In this document: positions 21,933 to 59,552 of the stretch, in pieces
Position numbering within the stretch: the first letter of the stretch is position 1
Layout: every line of letters begins with the position of its first letter
Assembly (NCBI RefSeq): GCF_038025025.1
Contig: NW_027117346.1
Coordinates: 434,001-498,000 of the forward strand
DNA length: 64,000 nt
Direction: 5' to 3'
Source of the DNA: Phyllosticta citribraziliensis
Lineage: Eukaryota
The notes under the pieces: model-generated
What the model was told of the DNA's origin: nothing
Seen by the model: the letters and a program-made list of their open reading frames with translations, nothing else
Databases searched by the model: none
Program-made: the position numbers and the translations under genes

Positions 21933-22236
21933 GGTAAATGGGTTTGGGAATAAGCTTTGGCATGGTTGGAGGAAGCGAGAGAATCTAGAGGACTGACTGC
22001 GATGCATAGCGGGCTCAGGAGTCGTAGATGGAGGCACAGGAGTCTTTCATTATGGTTGGAAGGTGGAAACTCCCGGTCATGAACCAATTGATTACCCTCA
22101 TTTTGCGACAGTCGCATTTCCTCGACAGGAACGTGATGAATGACCAAGAGCAGGAAGGAGATGTCCAATCGAGCCCCTGTTTGCGATGACAGGAGGAGGC
22201 CAGGGAAATCGAAGAGAGGCGAACGAAGCGCAAACG

Positions 22237-23013: not shown

Positions 23014-23430
23014 ATGTCGGCGAACAACCTCCCGCCCTCGGCCTTCATCAGTCCATTCCCACCCCGATTCTGGATATGTGCCGAATGCCTGGTTCCCCGT
23101 GCAATTCAGTACCTATCGAAGACCAGCGGCGTCTGTCGCTATTGCGATATCGGCTCGAAGGATACAAGGATTGAGCATAAGTACTGCATTGACGGCGGCC
23201 ACGATGCGTTTCGCGTCGACTTTTTCGACCCTATTGGCGAAGAGATGGACACTTGCCTGACATGCCAACGTCTGGACTTAGGGCCAGCGAAGAAGAGGGT
23301 GGATACGGGAGCTGGCAAAGAATTACCTGGACTTCATGCATCATCCTCGACGACCGAATCCTCTGCGCCAACGAGACGCCGAGCGAAGGCGAAGATGGAT
23401 GCGAAACGTAACAGCATAGTACCATGCTAA
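23014..23430 (+). CDS. Small orphan protein (138 aa) with a putative double zinc-binding module and a basic tail
   Basis: CAEC-x16-CRYC, then C-x4-H ... CLTC, and a basic RRRAKAK tail. An upstream intron-like element (GTCAGT 22876, GCTAAC 22909, AAG 22928) suggests a spliced 5' UTR. Confidence 0.5.
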   Translation: MSANNLPPSAFISPFPPRFWICAECLVPRAIQYLSKTSGVCRYCDIGSKDTRIEHKYCIDGGHDAFRVDFFDPIGEEMDTCLTCQRLDLGPAKKRVDTGAGKELPGLHASSSTTESSAPTRRRAKAKMDAKRNSIVPC

Positions 23431-24301
23431 GCCTGTGCACCATCCTACATGATCGGTAGCAATGCTGGTACAGAATTGCGTTTGCCAAGTTTGCCGACGT
23501 TACCTACCCCTGCTGCAACTCGGACGTCTTTAGTAAACATTACGAAACAATTCATTGAGGAGTCCAGCAATCCAATGTCCTCCAGGAGACGATCATGAAT
23601 TTCGGGTCACCCCGTCACCACCTACCATCATACAAAGACAAAGCAGCCTTATTCGGACGAGCAACATGGCTATTCACAGCCAACGACCATCCGGCTGCGA
23701 AGAGGTTTCATGCTGAGTATGAAGGAGGTTGTTCTCACATCACTTATTTGCTGTGTGTTGCTGGGTATCATAGGCCGGGGTTGTGGGTGCAACAAACTCT
23801 AGCTCCGAGAAGAAGCAGCTCGAGGAAAGACTTTGTCCTTCAGTCTACTATTTCAACAGTGGGATTTAAACCAATGAGAGGCCTGGGAAACAGAGGATGG
23901 AGGACATCGAGAATGAGGATTGGGTGAGTGCACGGTAAGATATGGAAAAATGCGGCCGTGGATCAATCGAATACCCTCCTTTCATGACGACCGCCTTTCC
24001 TTGCCGTGAAGTCGATGAATGACCAACAGCTTCGGAGGAAGAATACGCAATCAAGGCAGTGGGTGATTGGATGGGGAGCAGACAAAGAGCATTCGTGCGC
24101 TTTCGCAGGGGAATGATGGTGAAGATCCAAGCTCTATGGTGCCAGGGTGCTTCAGAGTAAACAAGCATTCTCAAGGCTGGCAATGAGAAGCATTCATGAG
24201 CTTGGTATGTCCTTGCAAGCGAGGAGGAACCTCGGACTTGAAAAGAGACGTGACGGGAGCACCGTAAGCGAGACAGATGGAGTTGGGTCGCAGGTTCAGC
24301 A

Positions 24302-24537
24302 TATAAATCGCCGCTTCAGCGCCGGTCACTCCTCTCCTCTCCACTCCACTCCACTCCACCCCACTCGAGTGAAGTCACCCCAGACCTCCCTCATCTTCGC
24401 GGTCTGAATATCCCTCCTCGAGATCACCTCAAGTCAACCCGGCGTGCTGCAATCTCCAACACACCTCGACGGTAAGTCGATCCTTGCACCACCTCTCCCT
24501 CACCCATGTAGCTGACCAGCTGTCTTCTTGACCTCAG
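24302..24537 (+). promoter_or_regulatory. TATA box, CT-rich initiator region and 5'-UTR intron upstream of the Gag-like ORF
   Basis: TATAAA at 24302, a (CTCCA)n pyrimidine tract ~24328-24366, donor GTAAGT 24472, branch GCTGAC 24511 and acceptor CAG at 24537 (alternatives at 24519 and 24556). Confidence 0.5.
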
Positions 24538-24687
24538 GTGGTCCTGTCCCTCGCAGGTACCTTCTGACAGCTTGCTTCATCAACACTGTCGCCTCCGCTG
24601 CTGTCTGCTCTTATTGGGTTGCGCAGCCGTCCGACACATCACCCCTGGCCGTGATCTACCAGACCAACAACGATCGTCGAATTCACT

Positions 24688-25731
24688 ATGCTCCAACCCA
24701 AAATGAAGGATCTTGAGGAGATGAAGGCCCAGTACGAGGCTCATGGACCTGCATTTGACAAGCCCAATCAGGCTTCGGATTGCGCGAACGTTTCAAACAG
24801 CGAGCAGCAGGCGTATGTCGAGGAGGCAAAGGCAACCATCGTTAGTCTCGAGAACCAGCTCAAGGAGGCAAAGGCAATCATCGTCCGTCGTAACAGGCAG
24901 CTCGATGCAGGAGAGAGAACCAGCAGCCGTCTCGGAAAGCAGCTCGATGCCGAAGAGGCAACTAACTACAGTCTCAGAAAGCAGCTCCAGAACGAAAAGT
25001 CCACCACCATCAGTCTCAAGAGGCAGCTTCAGGATGAAGAGGCAACCAATATTAGTCTCGGAAAGCGGCTCAAGGACGTGAAGGCAGCAAGCATCAGTCT
25101 CGAAAAGCAGCTCCAGGACGAAGAGCCAACCACCATTAGTCTTGAGGAGCAGCTTCAGGACGAAGAGGCAACCGACGTCAGTCTCGGAAAGCAGTTCCAG
25201 GACGAAAATCCAACCGCCATGAGCCTTGAGGAGCAGCTTCAGGACGAGGAGGCAACCAAAGCCAGTCTCGAAAAGCAGCTCCAGGACGAAAAGTCACCCA
25301 CCGACAGTCTCGAGAAGCAGGTCCAAGACGTCGCATCTTCCGACGCCACCAGGCCGCAAATCGAACGCGCCCCTCGCCCATTCTGCTTCAACGGCAACTC
25401 CATCGACTGGCGCGAGTTCAAGCTGAAAATGCGCTCCAAGATGCAGCTCGACGGCCACCTCTATCCCACCGCCAACGACCGCTGGATGTACGTCATGAGC
25501 CAGCTCATGACCCGGCTCAAGGCCGATGCTTTTGACGAATTCTGCTCGTTCTTAAAAGATGGCACTATCAGCATTCCTGACAAGCCTCACGGCGACTTCG
25601 AGGACTTGCTCCAGATCCTTGAGAATGTTTTTGACCCCCCGCCCCGCTCGCGCACGGGTGACAGTTCTCGAAGGGCTCGTGGAAGGGGACGCAATTCTCA
25701 CAGGCGTCCGTACCCTTCCGATGTTTTCTAA
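24688..25731 (+). CDS. 347-aa protein: tandem coiled-coil repeats + retrotransposon Gag (capsid)-like domain + Arg-rich tail
   Basis: PFCFNGNSIDWREFKLKMRSKMQLDGHLYPTANDRWMYVMSQL...FEDLLQILENVFDP resembles the fungal Ty3/gypsy Gag pattern (PxxFxG...F...KL......P....R..Y..S.L...F..L...L...F.DP). The ORF is uninterrupted. Confidence 0.7.
   Translation: MLQPKMKDLEEMKAQYEAHGPAFDKPNQASDCANVSNSEQQAYVEEAKATIVSLENQLKEAKAIIVRRNRQLDAGERTSSRLGKQLDAEEATNYSLRKQLQNEKSTTISLKRQLQDEEATNISLGKRLKDVKAASISLEKQLQDEEPTTISLEEQLQDEEATDVSLGKQFQDENPTAMSLEEQLQDEEATKASLEKQLQDEKSPTDSLEKQVQDVASSDATRPQIERAPRPFCFNGNSIDWREFKLKMRSKMQLDGHLYPTANDRWMYVMSQLMTRLKADAFDEFCSFLKDGTISIPDKPHGDFEDLLQILENVFDPPPRSRTGDSSRRARGRGRNSHRRPYPSDVF
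24844..25347 (+). repeat. 12 x 42-bp (14-aa, two-heptad) intragenic tandem repeat, consensus SLEKQLQDEEATxx
   Basis: Units run in exact 42-bp phase from AGTCTCGAGAACCAG at 24844 to AGTCTCGAGAAGCAG at 25306. Confidence 0.95.
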
Positions 25732-25987
25732 TTGCCCGCCCATGTGAGAACGCGGAGGGGCGATGACGGCGATCGAAAGGCGAGGGGCTGCACAAAAGGA
25801 GCAAAAGAGGTTGTCGAAAGAGACCCAATGCATGCTCTATGGGTCTAGCTGCGGCGGTGGAGGACAGCTTCCAACGAATGACTGTGGCAGCGGCGGAAAG
25901 TTCCTTGCCCTCATTTGCGTTGATGAATGGGTGCTCCACCGACACGGCCAAAGGTACCAGGAGACACCATTTCTTTTGCCAGCCACT

Positions 25988-26303
25988 GTGGGAGGTCCGG
26001 TATTGGTGCGTGGCATTTGGCAGGCTTTTGGATTTACACTTTTCTTCACACCCATGGTGGGAGGTCCGGCATTGGTGCGTGGCACTTGACTGGCTTTTGG
26101 ATTCACACTCTTTTCTTTCCCTTTTTTTTCTTTTCCGTCCAAGACCGACGACAAAATTGGGGCCGGAGAGGGATTACTCGGCCAAAAAAAGGGTGGGGAG
26201 TGGACATTCGGTCGAAAGGCTTCTGGATACACACTTCTTCCCTATTCCGTCCAATGTTGACGATAAAATTGGGGTTGGGGAGAGATTACTTGGACAACAA
26301 AAC
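25988..26303 (+). repeat. Nested degenerate direct repeats downstream of the Gag-like ORF
   Basis: GTGGGAGGTCCGGYATTGGTGCGTGGCAYTTG..GGCTTTTGGATTYACACT at ~25988 and ~26057; GACGAYAAAATTGGGG..GGAGAG.GATTACTYGG at ~26147 and ~26259; a third GGCTTCTGGATACACACT at 26218. Confidence 0.75.
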
Positions 26304-26724
26304 GACGGGGAGGGGAAACTTGGTCGAGAACTTGGAAGAGACTTCTTTTGACGATGAGAAGCTTTCGGATCTTGGGCATCCAGAGAGACAGAAGCTAGTG
26401 GAAGACGGATTCATCATCTGACAATTGCTTTTCGTGTGCGATACCTCCTTGCAAAATTTGAAACTTGAGTCTCCCCGGATGAAAAGAGTCGCTCGTAGCA
26501 GTCTGGCGTCGTGCGTACTTGGAATGTCTACGTTTCTGTTTTGTTCGACCTACACAGCAAGACGTCAAGTCAAGCACACGAGCAAGCAGATATGCAGCTA
26601 ATTGAGTTGAAAACCCTCAAAAAGCCAGGTGAACGGAGTAACCCACCCAAAACAAAACACCCGTGTATGCTCAAAACCGTTTTTGCAACCCACCATTTCC
26701 CATTTCCATTCTACCACCCGTCAC

Positions 26725-28701
26725 TCACATCTCAAGCGTAGCGATTCTGCCTCCAACTTCGCCATCCCTGGCCCACAGACCTTGCGCCACCCTCTCTCGC
26801 ACCATCTCCAGGTAGCTGGCACGGCCGGGCACCGCGTCATCATCCGCACACTGCTCCAGGCGGCGCATGATTATCTTGAGCGCTTCAAACTTGCGCAGCT
26901 GTACCTGGTACGCCGTCGTCTCAGCCTCGCCGCGGCCGCCGACCAGATTCGTGAAGCGGGGCGCCGGGCGCAAAAGGCAGGGCAGGATGGGGTTTCCTGG
27001 GCGCAGGATGCAGGCCAGACCGGTGGACGGGAAGTTGGAGGGCACGGGGATTGTGGATGACGCTGAGGTGGACCAGTTGGCTGTTGCGACGGCTTTGACA
27101 AAGTCGAGGGCGGCGATGGCGGTTTCCTTGAGCGCCAGGGTCTCGGCGCATTGGGTGATTTCGGAGGCGAAGCCCGAATTGTCGGTGGTGTAGAGGTAAT
27201 AGAGGATGCGGGCGGCGTTGCTTTCGGCCTCGATGCGTCCAGGAGCGGTTGCGCTCGAGTTGGGAGTAGCAACCGGCGCGGGAAATGTGATTTCTTTAGA
27301 TGTGTCGGGCCCGTGGAAGACGGTGGCGAGAGTGCGTAGTGCGTCAGCATTGGTGTGGCGATTCAGGGGGACCAACGCAAGAGGTTTTGAATCCCAGAGC
27401 GCCTCGGATTCGGGCAAAAGCGTTGCGCGGGGGAGCGATGAGAGGACATGCAAGTCGTGGATGGGAGACTCCCCGTGTGCCCACTGTGTGGTTTTTACTT
27501 GGCTCAAGACGTCCATGATCCGGGCGAGGACTCGCTTTCTAATGGGGCCACTTGTTTCGAAATCAGAAGGATAGGTGGATGCGTACTTGGAGAGGTAGTT
27601 TGCTGTAGGCCGGTAGAGGTAGGAGACTTCAAATGTTGGGTGAGATTTGGGATCAATGTAGTAGCTAAGAGTGCGTTCGTGAAGGCCAGTAGACTTGAGG
27701 TATTCAAGGGCAATGGACTCGTGATGAGATGCAACCGACTTGGAGGGCTGATTGCAAGCCTTGAGCAGGTCTGAGAAGAAGTCCACGAGACTGATGTGCA
27801 TGAGCACGTCTCCGTCGTAGTCGACAGCATACAACGATATGAAGTCGAGCAGGCCGGTAGACTTGAGACCAAAGCTTTCTTCGACGTCAGGATGGTGCGA
27901 GTGGCTAATGGCACACCAGCTCAGGGTGCCAACCTTGGGCAACCACGTCATTAGCCTTGCTTGCGCTACCGTTTTCCGAGATTTACTTGGGGGAGGAATT
28001 TGGGAACGAGGGCCTTGGGCGCCGCAAAGGGCAAAGAAGAGACTGTAAACGTCCTTGTCTCCAAAGACACGTTTCCACATGAAGCCGGTGCCATAGCTTG
28101 CAGTCGCCTCTGGGCTCGGCACGGTAGCTGTAGGATCGCCATGGCCCATGGAGTTGGCGTCGGGAGCAGAGTCGATCCCGAGGACATCTGCGGGATCCTT
28201 GTCGACCTGGAGGAGCTTGAACAGGATGTGACCCGCTCTGTCGGCTACCCCGATATCTTCAGCGGCAAGCCATAGCTGGATGAGACGAGAAACAATGTCT
28301 GGGGTGCTGGCGATGAATTCGGCGTGCCTGCTACTAAAGGTGGCCTTTTCCAACAGCGACAAGGCCAGCGTGTGAAAGGGGAGGGCGGCGAGGTCAAGTC
28401 CAGCAGCAAAATCGACTGGAGGTCTTATCGATCTAAGAAAGTCAAAGTCATGGCGATCTATGAGTTTGACCAAAAGCTGGATTACGGGCGTTGGGTCCTG
28501 CTGGAGCTGCGGGAGAAGGCGGGCAAGTTGCTGAACCAAGCCCTGCGTTTCGGCCGGCTCTATCCTGAACTGGGATGAAAGAAAGGGCTGCAGGGTATCA
28601 AAGAGGGTCGTATCCAGAGGATGGGATGGATTCTGCTCGACGTCGTCAAGATGGGCAGGCAAACGCTCGAGAGTGGCCGAGACGAGATCCTGAGAGGCCA
28701 T
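26725..28701 (-). CDS. Conserved helical-repeat protein, probable Hsm3/PSMD5-like proteasome assembly chaperone
   Basis: Intronless 658-aa Leu-rich helical ORF. Motifs LQQDPTP, WKRVFGDKDVY, KTVAQARL and the terminal EVGGRIATLEM recall the Pezizomycotina HSM3-domain family (from memory, not searched). Confidence 0.65.
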   Translation of the reverse strand: MASQDLVSATLERLPAHLDDVEQNPSHPLDTTLFDTLQPFLSSQFRIEPAETQGLVQQLARLLPQLQQDPTPVIQLLVKLIDRHDFDFLRSIRPPVDFAAGLDLAALPFHTLALSLLEKATFSSRHAEFIASTPDIVSRLIQLWLAAEDIGVADRAGHILFKLLQVDKDPADVLGIDSAPDANSMGHGDPTATVPSPEATASYGTGFMWKRVFGDKDVYSLFFALCGAQGPRSQIPPPSKSRKTVAQARLMTWLPKVGTLSWCAISHSHHPDVEESFGLKSTGLLDFISLYAVDYDGDVLMHISLVDFFSDLLKACNQPSKSVASHHESIALEYLKSTGLHERTLSYYIDPKSHPTFEVSYLYRPTANYLSKYASTYPSDFETSGPIRKRVLARIMDVLSQVKTTQWAHGESPIHDLHVLSSLPRATLLPESEALWDSKPLALVPLNRHTNADALRTLATVFHGPDTSKEITFPAPVATPNSSATAPGRIEAESNAARILYYLYTTDNSGFASEITQCAETLALKETAIAALDFVKAVATANWSTSASSTIPVPSNFPSTGLACILRPGNPILPCLLRPAPRFTNLVGGRGEAETTAYQVQLRKFEALKIIMRRLEQCADDDAVPGRASYLEMVRERVAQGLWARDGEVGGRIATLEM

Positions 28702-55184: not shown

Positions 55185-58100
55185 TCAGATTTCAGATCTT
55201 TCTGAGTAAAGCTCGACGAAAAGTCGTTCTGATTCAATGTCCCTCGTCGCCATTTCAATCATCTTGTGCTCATGTCGACATTGGTCGGAAACTGAATCTT
55301 CCTCCGAGATTTCCTCTTCGTCTCCAGTTTCTCCTTGTAAATCTTCCTCCTCTTTGCATTTTCTACACAAATTGTAACGGCATTCACTGCATTTATATCG
55401 CACCCCATTGATCCAGTGTTGGCGTGGGTGAGTCCTTTCCCAGAGGTCATGGGGATAGGATTGGTAGCAAAATGGACCATAGCATACCACTCCAACGTGA
55501 CAGTCGTCTTCTGGCTCAACTGCCTTCGCTTTCCGCAGTCTTTTTATAGTCTTGGCCAGTCGAATTTGCATTTCGATGCCTTCGTATTCGGTGGTGCGTT
55601 GGAATCTATAGAGAGCGGATTCCAACGGAGAGCCAAAGAGGTCAGGTTTGTCCACGTTCGCTCCCGCAGTAATCAGAGCATCCACAATTTCAGTTTGGCC
55701 GCTGAATGAGGCACTTGAAAGCGGTAGTTCACCAATCCGGAAATATGGGTTTGCCTCTTGAACTTCCCGAGGAAGTGCACCGTGGCTCAGCAAGATCCGC
55801 ACAATGGTCCCCTTTTCATTGTACATCGCTGCTTGTAAAGCCATGTCCACCTGGGACTGGCTGAACTGTCGAGCTGAGAGGAGGAGCTTTACCACTTTTT
55901 CATTTCCCCCCTTTGAAGCTGCTTCAAGGACAGAAGTCCATTTTCCAATAGCAGTGTTGGCTTCTGCTCCGGCAGCAAGCAAGAGCTTGACTGCCTCTAC
56001 TTGCAAATCCGTATCATTTGTACGGAGCAAGCAAAGCGTTGAAAGCGCTGTGCCAGTCTCACTGCTGGCGTTGATATCTACGCCGCTGTTGATGAGCAGT
56101 TCGACGATTTCGAGCCTTTCCTTGTTGAAATCTCCTGCAAATGCTGCTTCTAAAACAGTGCGCTTGGTTCCTTCCAGCTTGATAGTCGATAATTTATCGC
56201 TCCGTGGAGTGTCGTACAGTAAAGTTGGTTGTAGTTCATGTACGTCAGCACCGCGATCAAGCAGAAGACGGACAAGACTGAGATCACCGCCGTCGCAGGC
56301 GGCGTGAAGCATCAAGGTTTGGCAGCTTTGATTGATATCCGCTCCAGCGTCAATCAGGGCCCTTGAAATAACTTCATGGTTCCTGAAAGCGGAGTATATG
56401 AGTGGGGACCCAACTGTGCCATCAGATGCATTGATGTCCGCGCTGTGCTCGAGCAGAAGTTGAACGGCGGGTAGACTGCCACTTAAAGCAGCAGCGTGTA
56501 GCGCAGTGCCCATGTCAGGCCCCTTCACGTCAACTTCAGCTCCAAAATGGAGCAGATGTCGCATTATTTCGACGCGTCCCTGGTAAGCTGCGTAATACAA
56601 GGGTGATTGATTTGGTACGGAATCTCCGTAAATTGTCTCCTGCCCCATGAGAACATCAGGCTGAAAGGTGTTTGCGTTTGGATTCACGCCTTTCTCCAGA
56701 ATGGAGTACACTAGCTCTTCAGAATTGGCAATCATAGCATTCCAGAGCGTTCGGCTCCTTGGACGGACTTGCATATTGAGGAGAAAGCGCGCTACACCAT
56801 TGTCTTCACGCTTGGCCGCGGTGTCGAGTGCTTTGGAGAAGGTGGAGTCTCCCTCTATTCCCTTGGCTCCATGCGAGAGAAGGGTCTCGACGACTTGGAC
56901 GGAGGAAAAATCACAAGCATGTTCGAGGATAGTACCGGAGAAGTAGGGCTCGTTGGCACCAGCCACTCCCGAATTTAGCAGAAGCTCAATCATGTCTCGT
57001 CCTTGGTGCGCATACGGCATAATGGCCGCAAGTGGGGAACTACAGTCCGGAACTGCAATGATTTCATAGTCAAGGAGTTTCCGAACTCTGTCAATGGAGC
57101 CTGTGGTGCACGCGGCACACAATGTCCATTGATGAAGAGCCGGAGTATTCCATCTCTCGTCCTCTGCAACAGCTGAGAGCTTGTAAAGTTGTGTGATGTG
57201 GATTAAGTCCATTGCGGTAGCTTCTCTCGCCGAAAAATGATTCCTTTTACGTGCAATACTGCCAAGGGTAGAAGCGTCCATGGAAAGTAGCGAATCGAGG
57301 TGCCCGCGGATGTCTTCGAAGTGCTCTTTGGCAGCGGAGGTGATATGTTCGTCAAAGTACCGAGCGCAATAACTGTGAAATCCGAATCTGTCATCCCAAC
57401 TCTTCTTCTGCCACTTGACTGGGCCATCTTCGGAGTGGTAGAGCTTTAGAAATACGAGGCAAACCTTCGCCATTTTCGATTCCATGAGCTGCTGGTCCTG
57501 AAGTTCTGCAAACGCGCCGTCCTTGATTGCCTTTTCTTGCTCGAAAAATTCGGCAAGACTGTAATGTACGGGTCTTACTGCCCCATTCTCAAGGACAAGC
57601 AGATTTTGACAAGTATCCAGAATATCCTGTTTCGTGTATTTCTCACACTTTTCCAAAATCTGTCCAAATGTGGTGAACTCTGAGTCGGTTGCGATGGCAC
57701 AGACCAACGATCCCATCTCGAAGGGCAGCCAGTCCTTGACCTTGAGTGCCCACATTAGACTCTTCAAGGCAAGAATCTGCAGTGGTTTCGACTCTTGTTC
57801 AATTCGTCCAAGAATGCGGTCATACGTCTGAAAGAGATCCCTTGGTAAAGTTGACAGAACTTCGAGAACGTCTTCTCTATTCGCTTGACGAAAGATGTTG
57901 TCCAGCTGCAACTTTACCCACAGGAAGACCCCATTGGCGTGATCGACAAGTTCCTTGTAAATGAGATCCTTCGTCTCGACGTCTGTGACACGAAATCTGC
58001 GTTGGTTGTTCCGCTCCCCTGGCGTTGGTGGTTGTGTGCGGGATTCAAGCTCGCCCCTTATATATTCTTCAATATCGTTCCGGGTATCCGCGGTCTTGAT

Positions 58101-59552
58101 CTCCAAATTGGTTATTTTTTCGAAATTGAACGTCTCTCTGATGGAGGATTCGGGTCGACTGGTGATAAAGAATTTCGCCTCGGAACGTGAAATAAATTGG
58201 AAAATCTCTGCTCGCGGTCTTTCTTCGCATTCGTCGAGCGCATCCATCACGATGAAGGTCTTTGAAAACAGACTGTTGAGCTTGGAAATCATCTCGGTCG
58301 TGGCCTCAGGTGAGGGGAATCGATGGGTTTCAAAGTGAGCAGAGAGAAAATCGGCAAGATCCACAGGGAAGCTTTTCAGTTGCGATGACAGTTGTTTCAA
58401 GACCGCTGCAATGATTTTTGCGGGCTTCTGAGTCTCCATGTCATCATATCTGAATGACACAAAGGCTTTGCCCACTCCGGCATTGCTTGTGGCCCTGTCT
58501 TTTTGTATGTGATCCATCACGATGCTGCTTAATACCGATTTTCCAGAGCCAGGCCGTCCGTGGCACCACAAAACTCGAGGTTGTTGGCCATGAAACCACT
58601 CCTTGTATTTTTCGTGGTTTAGTAGCCAATTGCCAGTCCCGGGCCATCTCTTTTGCAAACCCTCTCGTTGGATGGTATCAAAATCCTTGGGTGAAATCCA
58701 CCCGAAGTAGTTGTGGCGTTGGTCCTCAGAGAGTATTCGTGTTTGTTTCGTGGACTCGCTTTGAAGATTCGAGATTTGATGCAAAGCCTCCGTGCCCTTG
58801 GCTTGACTCAGTACGTCGAGAGAGCTTTGGATTTCTTCCTCGATTTCGCCAAACTTAGCATCGAAAGGCTCCCATTGGACGCGTCCGAATCTCCTGATAT
58901 GGCCCAAGGTATGCTCTTGGTGGTCTCGGGTTTTGAAAACGCTGTAGGCCTGATGATAGAATTTCAAGATGCCGACGTAGACGTCTGCCATGCTTTGCTG
59001 CACGAGAACCATTTTCTCAGGAAGTTTTGAGGCTTCCTGAAGGTGTCTCAGGTGAGCGGTCAGTTTCTCCAGCATTCCCGTCAACTTTTCAAAGAAATTG
59101 ACGTAGTTTAGCGCCATTTTGATGATGAGCCTGGCTCCGCCAATAATGATCGATGCAACGTCTGGAATACCAAGTGATGCAAAGGAAGATGTTGTTGCAA
59201 GCAGCTGGTCCAGTATGGTCAAGAATTCCTTCGTCGGGCCGACAAGGCTTCGAGCAACAGATTGGCTGTCCTTGCGATCCAAATCGCTGATTTCCTGGAC
59301 CAAGTCCTCGGGAGAGACAGATTTGTGCGCATCGATAAAGGCTTTTCGTTCTTCTGGAGGAAGCCTATCCAAAAACTTCATCCAGGCGACCTTGAAGGCA
59401 TTTGTATCTGTACCGATTTTCGCAAGGCTGGGCTTTGGTGAATGCTTTACGAGCAAGGCCACTGTGGGTTGGGATGGATCGGATGCTGAAGATGCCCCAG
59501 ACCCGCGCCAGAGCTTGAATTTGTCGCGGAATCCACGTCGCTGCGAGGACAT
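55185..59552 (-). CDS. Fungal NLR (STAND) protein: N-terminal helical domain + NACHT + ankyrin repeats + C-terminal ZZ-type zinc finger
   Basis: PGTGNWLL, Walker A GRPGSGKS, Walker B IVMDALDEC, FFITSR, ANGVFLWVKLQL, VHYSLAEFF, multiple ankyrin repeats (SPLYYAAYQGRVEIMRHLLHFGAEVD; TALHAAALSGSLPAVQLLLEHSADIN). Intronless; first ATG at 59552. Confidence 0.9.
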   Translation of the reverse strand: MSSQRRGFRDKFKLWRGSGASSASDPSQPTVALLVKHSPKPSLAKIGTDTNAFKVAWMKFLDRLPPEERKAFIDAHKSVSPEDLVQEISDLDRKDSQSVARSLVGPTKEFLTILDQLLATTSSFASLGIPDVASIIIGGARLIIKMALNYVNFFEKLTGMLEKLTAHLRHLQEASKLPEKMVLVQQSMADVYVGILKFYHQAYSVFKTRDHQEHTLGHIRRFGRVQWEPFDAKFGEIEEEIQSSLDVLSQAKGTEALHQISNLQSESTKQTRILSEDQRHNYFGWISPKDFDTIQREGLQKRWPGTGNWLLNHEKYKEWFHGQQPRVLWCHGRPGSGKSVLSSIVMDHIQKDRATSNAGVGKAFVSFRYDDMETQKPAKIIAAVLKQLSSQLKSFPVDLADFLSAHFETHRFPSPEATTEMISKLNSLFSKTFIVMDALDECEERPRAEIFQFISRSEAKFFITSRPESSIRETFNFEKITNLEIKTADTRNDIEEYIRGELESRTQPPTPGERNNQRRFRVTDVETKDLIYKELVDHANGVFLWVKLQLDNIFRQANREDVLEVLSTLPRDLFQTYDRILGRIEQESKPLQILALKSLMWALKVKDWLPFEMGSLVCAIATDSEFTTFGQILEKCEKYTKQDILDTCQNLLVLENGAVRPVHYSLAEFFEQEKAIKDGAFAELQDQQLMESKMAKVCLVFLKLYHSEDGPVKWQKKSWDDRFGFHSYCARYFDEHITSAAKEHFEDIRGHLDSLLSMDASTLGSIARKRNHFSAREATAMDLIHITQLYKLSAVAEDERWNTPALHQWTLCAACTTGSIDRVRKLLDYEIIAVPDCSSPLAAIMPYAHQGRDMIELLLNSGVAGANEPYFSGTILEHACDFSSVQVVETLLSHGAKGIEGDSTFSKALDTAAKREDNGVARFLLNMQVRPRSRTLWNAMIANSEELVYSILEKGVNPNANTFQPDVLMGQETIYGDSVPNQSPLYYAAYQGRVEIMRHLLHFGAEVDVKGPDMGTALHAAALSGSLPAVQLLLEHSADINASDGTVGSPLIYSAFRNHEVISRALIDAGADINQSCQTLMLHAACDGGDLSLVRLLLDRGADVHELQPTLLYDTPRSDKLSTIKLEGTKRTVLEAAFAGDFNKERLEIVELLINSGVDINASSETGTALSTLCLLRTNDTDLQVEAVKLLLAAGAEANTAIGKWTSVLEAASKGGNEKVVKLLLSARQFSQSQVDMALQAAMYNEKGTIVRILLSHGALPREVQEANPYFRIGELPLSSASFSGQTEIVDALITAGANVDKPDLFGSPLESALYRFQRTTEYEGIEMQIRLAKTIKRLRKAKAVEPEDDCHVGVVCYGPFCYQSYPHDLWERTHPRQHWINGVRYKCSECRYNLCRKCKEEEDLQGETGDEEEISEEDSVSDQCRHEHKMIEMATRDIESERLFVELYSERSEI

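Follow-up and report, generated by a model that had tools for sequence, protein, structure and literature searches.

A candidate exapted Gag gene in Phyllosticta that combines a capsid N-lobe with a 14-aa repeat array

How does a gene resembling part of a retrotransposon Gag protein come to stand alone among ordinary fungal genes, and is it a host gene or a stranded fragment of a mobile element? The question is raised by a 64,000-nt stretch of the Phyllosticta citribraziliensis assembly GCF_038025025.1 (contig NW_027117346.1, positions 434,001–498,000; termed the window throughout, with coordinates counted from its first letter), in which an ATG-initiated open reading frame (ORF) at 24688–25731 (+) specifies a protein of 347 aa plus stop, on record in exactly this form as P0001. 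An initial annotation, made from the sequence alone, had proposed that this intact ORF is a domesticated Gag gene, in which a repeat stalk precedes a Gag-like domain and an Arg-rich tail. Here we find that the domain derives, with very little doubt, from a Gag, and that proteins truncated in the same way form a family restricted to one genus. By analogy with known systems we favour, at a probability of roughly one in three, the reading that the gene is an exapted, N-lobe-only Gag that would act as a Gag antagonist or decoy.

Origin and truncation of the capsid domain

The Gag-like domain occupies residues 221–318 (25348–25641, +), and its assignment to the capsid N-lobe of a Ty3/gypsy Gag draws on phmmer, hhalign, an AlphaFold2 (AF2) model and structure alignment. 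When the last 136 residues of the window protein were searched with phmmer against 1.84 billion representative proteins, we obtained 16 matches at E ≤ 1e-3, with E-values to fungal Gags of 9e-6 to 6e-4. Nine of the 16 (115–476 aa) contained DUF4939, Retrotrans_gag or Ty3_capsid, and five of these nine also zf-CCHC; because of these capsid domains, and the CCHC zinc knuckle in five, we regard the nine as fungal-type Ty3/gypsy Gags. Four matches were short, Phyllosticta-type relatives, whilst the remaining three were excluded as family evidence, P0006 and P0008 as multi-stretch matches with other domains and P0012, at 3919 aa, as a protein without a domain scan. When the five short proteins (the window protein and its relatives) were combined into a profile, hhalign aligned it with a profile of the nine Gags at 99.2 % (E 7.3e-20), over 89 columns with 34 % identity, and the aligned span corresponded to positions 163–251 of the 460-aa Gag P0009. 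None of the Pfam Gag models considered (DUF4939 PF16297, Ty3_capsid PF19259 and Retrotrans_gag PF03732) matched the whole window protein at E ≤ 10 or the domain alone at E ≤ 1; DUF4939 was matched below its cut-off by two of the five family members (best E 1.3e-4; 22.2 bits against 29).

An AF2 model of the domain, built from a 14-sequence alignment, contained four helices at a predicted local distance difference test (pLDDT) score of 73.8 (83–91 in the core). Structure alignment (VIA) of this model against 48,161 representatives of the Protein Data Bank (PDB) placed three N-lobes at the top, namely that of the dArc1 capsid (6tap_A; Z 7.0, root-mean-square deviation 2.7, 76 residues aligned), a second dArc1 entry (6s7x_A; Z 6.7) and the N-terminal domain of the Ty3 capsid (6r22_A; Z 6.7, 74 of 74 residues aligned), and 26 of the top 30 matches were retroelement capsid or Gag-derived chains. 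VIA scores with Z < 8 are middling and can reflect a common helical arrangement. With the same model, Foldseek returned 13 matches, six of them capsid lobes and none at E ≤ 0.001, and with a single-sequence AF2 model (pLDDT 61.5) it returned nothing. Capsid-type chains, for which the initial annotation had suggested a search, thus led the VIA ranking and did not reach E ≤ 0.001 in Foldseek, and, with Z middling, we regard the fold as consistent with the sequence homology rather than as independent proof. Among ESM Atlas structures, residues 225–322 aligned to the DUF4939 regions of clusters of the RTL6, RTL3 and gypsy-polyprotein types, with template modelling (TM) scores by query of 0.58–0.65, 0.61 being the value for the RTL6- and RTL3-type clusters. 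A sequence search of the PDB with the domain alone gave a best E of 0.42, and a profile search with alignment A1 gave only zinc knuckles, Ty3 being matched via its knuckle (E 0.013), and the PEG10 C-lobe (E 0.024); as knuckle and C-lobe are absent from the window protein, these profile matches were set aside. Taken together, the phmmer and hhalign homology to fungal Ty3/gypsy Gags and the N-lobes at the head of the fold matches bear out the Gag-like domain, and leave very little doubt that it is Gag-derived. A chance ORF was ruled out by the homologues and by the spliced leader described below.

The domain begins at the ERLPDPxxFxGDRKD motif of the Gags and ends at FDPP, a position at which the Gags read FGDPNRV and continue into the Retrotrans_gag or C-lobe region and the zinc knuckle. 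For the C-lobe, the alignment ends at FDPP and a relaxed tblastn search found no co-linear remnant in 25600–26750. The best row of that search, a minus-strand match to residues 113–146 of P0015 (E 0.003, database of 1.15 kb), is not co-linear and was missing from the whole-window search, and we dismissed it as noise. Likewise, no zf-CCHC match was found in the window protein, and its tail carries no Cys/His pattern. Judged from the sequence, only the capsid N-lobe is kept, whilst the C-lobe and the zinc-knuckle nucleocapsid are gone.

Within the phmmer search space this truncation is common to the window protein and four other proteins only, three of them from Phyllosticta species: P0002 of P. 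citrichinensis (306 aa; domain identity to the window protein 77–82 %, whole-protein identity 59 %), P0003 of P. paracitricarpa (154 aa; 53–61 %) and P0004 of P. capitalensis (192 aa; 42–44 %), together with P0005, encoded on a 993-nt contig (76 aa; 44–48 %). The five form one clade against the Gags (tree support 100/99) and share a 4-residue insert, KPHG, KPHA, KPQA or KPNA (KPxx), that is absent from the Gags; moreover, all five stop ∼5–30 residues from the FGDP/FDPP lobe boundary. A metagenome scan with alignment A2 gave 71 pattern matches, none of which was confirmed. The family is restricted to one genus.

Gene structure, repeat array and genomic setting

Upstream of the coding sequence lie a TATAAA box (24302–24307, +), read in the sequence as a putative promoter element, and a CT-rich tract, (CACTC)x8 (24327–24366, +), to which Tandem Repeats Finder (TRF) assigned a period of 5, 8 copies and 88 % matches; both had been noted upstream of the ORF in the initial annotation. 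A putative exon 1 of the 5′-untranslated region (5′-UTR; 24310–24471, +; 5′ end not mapped) lacks an ATG and ends at the GT of a 66-nt intron (24472–24537, +; GTAAGT..CTGAC..CAG), and exon 2 (24538–24687, +) again has no ATG ahead of 24688. This intron, predicted beforehand, was matched exactly by a contig of sequencing run X2 (depth 97.4) that joins 24470/71 to 24537/38 and so omits 66 nt with GT..AG ends, the RNA label of the run being a guess. An unspliced X2 contig that retains the intron occurred alongside it (depth 123.3), and an X1 contig passes straight through 24472–24537 without a joint. Run X2, which has the same organism label as the best-matching run (0.99 of words), contained a second canonical joint, from 26547 to 26645 with CT..AC ends, in the neighbouring minus-strand gene, and as two canonical joints stand beside unspliced forms, X2 is best explained as cDNA. 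The gene therefore appears, under this guessed label, to be expressed as a host-type spliced transcript. Its spliced leader is ATG-free, the sole upstream ATG (24506) sitting within the intron; no start site can be read, because the X2 contigs extend upstream of the TATA box. An X2 contig covering a 138-aa ORF at 23014–23430 (+), which has several CxxC pairs and no Pfam match, also extends into exon 1.

The protein begins with a region (residues 1–52; 24688–24843, +) that is also present in P0002 and continues into an acidic, helix-prone array (residues 53–220; 24844–25347, +). TRF reported a period of 42, 11.9 copies and 69 % matches at 24830–25330, and the in-frame parse gave 12 units of 14 aa with the consensus S-L-E-K-Q-L-Q-D-E-E-A-T-x-I, so that the 12 in-phase 42-bp repeats described from the sequence are indeed present. 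S1, L2, Q5 and L6 are retained in 10–11 of the 12 units, the net charge is −13, and the array includes three Pro and four Gly. The pooled ratio of nonsynonymous to synonymous differences (pN/pS) was 0.44 for adjacent units 3–12 and 0.73 across all unit pairs. The same annotation had taken each unit as two heptads of a coiled-coil stalk. This holds arithmetically for 14 aa; however, the 3.5-residue hydrophobic periodicity was equalled in 869 of 2000 cases when the unit positions were permuted, and core positions are hydrophobic in one heptad only (L2 and L6), the other offering E9 and a variable residue. Pfam PUMA_CC barely passed at residues 39–90 (31.3 bits against a cut-off of 30.1), and otherwise only coiled-coil-type families were reported. 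A homodimer prediction with two copies of residues 40–320 scored 0.18 against a mark of 0.32, which lends a dimer no support and decides nothing against one; in the ESM Atlas, the look-alikes of residues 1–220 were long-helix proteins (TM 0.31–0.44), and no match reached 0.9. We therefore call the array a helix-prone repeat; with the permutation result and the Pro and Gly residues, a canonical heptad coiled coil is not supported, and the stalk is at most a tentative reading.

Repeat number varies among close relatives, as the initial annotation had suggested might be checked, with 12, 10 and 7 units and the frame kept throughout. The array of P0002 is shorter by 70 residues, or five units, leaving seven, and a contig from run X5 of a relative omits 84 nt, or two units, leaving 10. 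The contig with the 84-nt skip also bears the 26-codon N-terminal duplication of P0002, in which a segment matching residues ∼24–44 of the window protein is duplicated with 26 extra residues, and in another X5 contig 3 nt are inserted at the place of an extra Asp in P0002–P0004. None of these indels in the repeats of relatives disturbs the frame (+78, −84 and +3 nt in X5; gaps of 26, 42 and 28 residues in the proteins). By eye, P0003 and P0004 each have one 'ISLxKQLxD'-like unit ahead of the N-lobe, and because of this single unit we consider that the array grew from an ancestral one. A second X5 form (depth ∼120) joins 24440 to 25272; it could come from another relative without the N-terminus and repeats, or the part in between could be too diverged to match at 80 % likeness.

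Following the N-lobe is a basic, RG-rich tail (residues 319–347; 25642–25728, +), the Arg-rich tail of the original description, which contains RRARGRGRNSHRR and has a net charge of +7. It is common to the window protein and P0002 only and is absent from P0003–P0005. P0002 ends in NCPPM, residues that the window encodes directly after the stop in the +1 frame, and for this reason we regard the extreme C-terminus as shifted rather than fixed.

The surroundings were those of a host gene rather than of a transposon. Between 14000 and 36000 we found no inverted repeats and four direct-repeat families, none LTR (long terminal repeat)-like, and none of the 14 neighbouring ORFs scanned had a Pfam match to reverse transcriptase, protease or integrase, in keeping with what had been noted by inspection. 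These ORFs included pieces of a major facilitator superfamily (MFS) transporter, Kelch, leucine-rich repeat (LRR), Rieske oxygenase and NACHT-ankyrin proteins, the others being unannotated. A tblastn search with 17 collected proteins found no second Gag-like locus in the window. The GC content of the gene (0.55) is in line with its surroundings, and GC at third codon positions (GC3) is 0.68, compared with 0.66 for the neighbouring gene. In P. citrichinensis, P0002 and the orthologue of the neighbour, P0018, carry locus tags 315052 and 315059, each on a contig of the same length (6,270,332), and the gene likely has the same neighbour there; X5 contigs of a relative match the ORF and both flanks, and none was seen spanning gene and neighbour. 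Membership of an LTR element was excluded by the absence of nearby LTRs or pol, and the gene is very probably no longer part of a mobile element.

The neighbour in question is a convergent downstream gene (26725–28701, −) with a 658-aa ORF and no Pfam match, the relatives of which are named 'DNA mismatch repair protein HSM3 N-terminal' in some sources. Identity of its HSM3-like orthologues is 95 % in P. citrichinensis, 94 % in P. citribraziliensis, 86 % in P. citriasiana, 80 % in P. capitalensis and ∼59 % in Neofusicoccum, and the stretch omitted by the X2 contig (26548–26644, CT..AC ends) would be a minus-strand intron beyond the stop of this ORF. Additional features were observed in the flanks. 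A 69-nt tandem duplication at 25968–26105, in the 3′ flank of the Gag-like gene, is 81 % alike, with a looser third copy near 26200–26290; X5 contigs of relatives omit 69, 131 and 263 nt at 25968–26290, from which we conclude that its copy number differs between relatives. Upstream of the gene, an 88-nt direct repeat (22064–22151 and 23943–24030; 70 % alike, 1879 nt apart) is perhaps a dispersed element of small size, or else a fragment of a promoter that was duplicated. Furthermore, a 1455-aa ORF at 55185–59552 (−), with Goodbye, NACHT/NPHP3_N, ankyrin-repeat and ZZ domains, represents a fungal protein of the NLR type (STAND) and lies in the lowest-GC stretch of the window (0.50; GC3 0.52).

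Maintenance, decay and possible function

The reading that we favour is that of a host gene of a Phyllosticta species (Dothideomycetes) that would have been built from the 5′ part of a Ty3/gypsy gag. In this account the gene has retained the pre-capsid helical region, with one 14-aa unit amplified to 12, and the capsid N-lobe; the C-lobe and the zinc-knuckle nucleocapsid have gone, together with the whole of pol; and it has gained the TATA/CT-rich upstream region, the spliced 5′-UTR intron and, in one sub-lineage, the basic RG-rich tail. Without a C-lobe, closed capsids would not be expected. Instead, the N-lobe may bind the matching N-lobe surface of a related Ty3/gypsy Gag and cap or mis-assemble the particle lattice, with the repeat array supplying length and possibly multivalency; of the functions raised in the initial annotation, the dominant-negative restriction factor would accordingly be the most plausible. 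The single lobe, long variable spacer, missing knuckle and fast evolution are the grounds on which such a decoy would parallel the action of RTL8 on PEG10 and of Drt2 and p22 on Ty1. We infer that selection may maintain the gene, that its product could bind Gag and that the repeats could multimerise. A more specific version would make the gene a fungal counterpart of RTL8, Fv1 or Drt2, in which the N-lobe is a 'lattice cap' directed at Ty3/gypsy elements, its reach or valency is tuned by repeats that rapidly expand and contract, and an arms race accounts for the fast evolution; it would then be the first Ty3/gypsy Gag exaptation to be reported from fungi and the first restriction factor to use the capsid N-lobe instead of the C-lobe, and we consider this version rather unlikely.

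Evidence for maintenance is mixed. ORFs persist in P. citrichinensis, P. paracitricarpa and P. capitalensis, although the neighbouring gene is 95 % identical in P. citrichinensis and only 80 % in P. capitalensis; as no neighbour orthologue is listed for P. paracitricarpa, P0003 has no divergence baseline. At a nonsense-to-missense ratio of 0.057 for this coding sequence, the 53, 72 and 119 differences in amino acids would imply ∼3, 4 and 6 stop codons in the absence of selection. Within the N-lobe, the block KMQLDGHxYPTANDRxxYVM is nearly invariant, whilst the rest of the domain falls to ∼40 % identity. Several observations weigh against a maintained Gag antagonist. The stop-codon estimate is crude, as the pairs are non-independent and databases hold intact ORFs only. 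The domain is 77–82 % identical to P0002, against 94.5–95 % for the adjacent gene in the same two species, a protein divergence ∼4-fold faster than that of the neighbour, and ∼80 % against ∼95 % is therefore close to the expectation under little or no constraint. None of the family members listed is recorded under the name P. citribraziliensis or P. citriasiana, although the database contains proteins named for both. Relative to other members, the N-lobe of the window protein has a 4-residue MSQL insertion inside helix 2 and a 1-residue deletion, and the C-terminal ends are unlike in all family members. A conservation-correlation test for retained Gag-type constraint gave only a weak signal (Spearman 0.19, p 0.09 by identity; 0.28, p 0.009 by BLOSUM). 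With regard to expression, the RNA nature of X2 is a guess, no matching run being on record as RNA. Finally, the search turned up no Gag that would be a close target, the most similar transposon Gags being 31–37 % identical in the phmmer listing and 25–32 % in alignment A1; this is weak evidence, since transposon genes are often masked or left out of annotated proteomes. In the tree, the end branch of the window protein measured 0.19 and that of P0002 0.0065, but relative-rate counts of 9 vs 5, 4 vs 7 and 4 vs 3, all non-significant, gave no backing to a lineage-specific acceleration. On balance, we consider it rather probable that the gene is maintained for some function.

Much of this would also suit a transcribed relic, in which a gag fragment became stranded at a host promoter and is open by chance or youth, near-neutral and functionless. 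The domain identity to P. citrichinensis, at ∼80 % beside 95 % for the neighbour, the unstable C-termini with an ORF end that has changed frame relative to P0002, the insertion in a core helix, the lack of a homologue under the two species names and the weak Gag-constraint test all point in this direction. Nevertheless, ORFs have been kept where the neighbour is only 80 % identical and several stops would be expected under neutrality, every indel seen in the repeats of relatives is in frame, adjacent units have a pN/pS of 0.44, the KMQLDGHxYPTANDRxxYVM block stands out as nearly invariant against ∼40 % identity elsewhere, and the 5′-UTR intron is spliced to give an ATG-free leader. A relic is thus a serious, if unlikely, alternative. 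The proposal of a domesticated Gag accordingly stands in so far as the gene is solitary, has a promoter region of host type and a spliced leader, and lies outside any LTR element, whilst its fast protein divergence leaves the stranded transposon fragment in contention, though weakened. Also unlikely, in our estimation, is a host role unrelated to transposons, in which the N-lobe would be a peptide- or protein-binding module on a repeat spacer and the RG tail would serve nuclear targeting or RNA binding. Such a role would fit the want of a close transposon Gag as target in the phmmer search, the net charge of +7 in the tail, and structural matches to the Arc N-lobes 4x3h (Z 5.6) and 7r24 (Z 6.0), solved with a bound peptide according to the entry title; cellular roles are, moreover, described for many domesticated gag genes in the available part of one survey (PMC8321522). 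However, the tail occurs in only two of the five members and is therefore not the core function of the family, fast evolution with changing repeat number is less usual for housekeeping, and the family is confined to one genus.

Two further alternatives carry far less weight. Gag ancestry and a basic tail might suggest an Arc- or PEG10-like capsid former that packages RNA through that tail, one of the functions proposed in the initial annotation. With neither C-lobe nor zinc knuckle, and no downstream remnant of them in 25600–26750, an Arc-like RNA-carrying capsid is unlikely; in addition, the tail is missing in three of the five members, and the N-lobe-only RTL8 forms no particles alone, as stated in the accessible portion of its description (PMC11684626). 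We find RNA-packaging particles hardly credible. A low-copy element, either non-autonomous or still mobile, of which the gene would be the gag, might be argued from the presence of family members in several species, yet there are no LTRs or inverted repeats in 14000–36000, no pol among the 14 ORFs and a single locus in 64 kb, and GC3 is host-like, the leader holds a spliceosomal intron and the gene likely sits beside the same neighbour in P. citrichinensis, all of which make a mobile gag highly improbable.

Relation to known Gag-derived genes

The proposed Gag antagonist can be set beside several known systems, beginning with the fungal Ty3/gypsy Gags themselves (P0009, P0011, P0014, P0015 and P0017; 396–476 aa). 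These have a homologous N-lobe and, by eye, a helical region ahead of it, as in the window protein; by comparison, the window gene is without C-lobe, CCHC knuckle, pol and LTRs, and adds the 4-residue insert, the 12-unit array, the intron-bearing leader and a new tail. Among mammals, LDOC1 is another N-lobe-only Gag derivative with a DUF4939 region. Arc and dArc1 supply the best fold matches (the dArc1 N-lobe, and the rat and human Arc N-lobes), whereas Arc keeps both lobes and forms capsids. Fv1, a Gag-derived restriction gene of mice, is also mentioned in PMC13709905. It combines an N-terminal coiled coil with a capsid-binding domain and is fast-evolving; its origin lies in another lineage of retroelements, and its targets are incoming capsids. 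Closer in architecture is mammalian RTL8, which is truncated to the N-terminal capsid lobe (DUF4939 region) like the window protein and, according to the excerpted account, binds PEG10 at its N-lobe and reduces the yield of particles (PMC11684626); in contrast to RTL8, the window gene represents an independent fungal capture with an added repeat array and no direct sequence match. Drt2 and the Ty1 p22/p18 proteins of Saccharomyces cerevisiae, which are also fungal and also endogenised or truncated single-lobe Gags, poison the Ty1 particle lattice via the C-lobe, and Drt2 shares 91.5 % identity with the stretch of Gag that it targets, as given in the available text (PMC13709905). Drt2 (9rxy) was among the VIA fold matches of the domain (Z 5.9); however, these yeast proteins derive from a Ty1/copia C-lobe, whilst the window gene has a Ty3/gypsy N-lobe for which no close target was found.

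The locus would offer a recent example whose stages of capture are still legible, from truncation at the lobe boundary through gain of a promoter and leader intron to repeat expansion and a new tail, and it would make it possible to ask whether the N-lobe of a capsid can poison assembly by itself. As the genus includes citrus pathogens, the control of transposons in these fungi is also relevant to genome plasticity.

In animals, co-opted gag genes have been studied in depth, and the few fungal cases, as far as the accessible parts of these sources extend, are Crtg12–14 (PMC8321522) and yeast Drt2 (PMC13709905). Within the library searched, we found no report of the present gene or of the capture of a Ty3/gypsy Gag in fungi, and a screen for fungal co-option mentions gag in passing and, in its available portion, no capsid capture (PMC10799480). 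The three co-opted genes Crtg12–14 (Wang and Han 2021) are described, in the part of that article at hand, as single-copy, expressed, gag-derived host genes older than the family level, two of them from Ty1/Copia and one from Bel-Pao elements, with none from Ty3/gypsy, and the screen that found them searched only above the family level (PMC8321522). By comparison, the window gene is Ty3/gypsy-derived and confined to one genus, and so lies below the threshold of that screen, to judge from the same partial text (PMC8321522). Co-opted gag genes are thus already known, and what is unusual here is the architecture.

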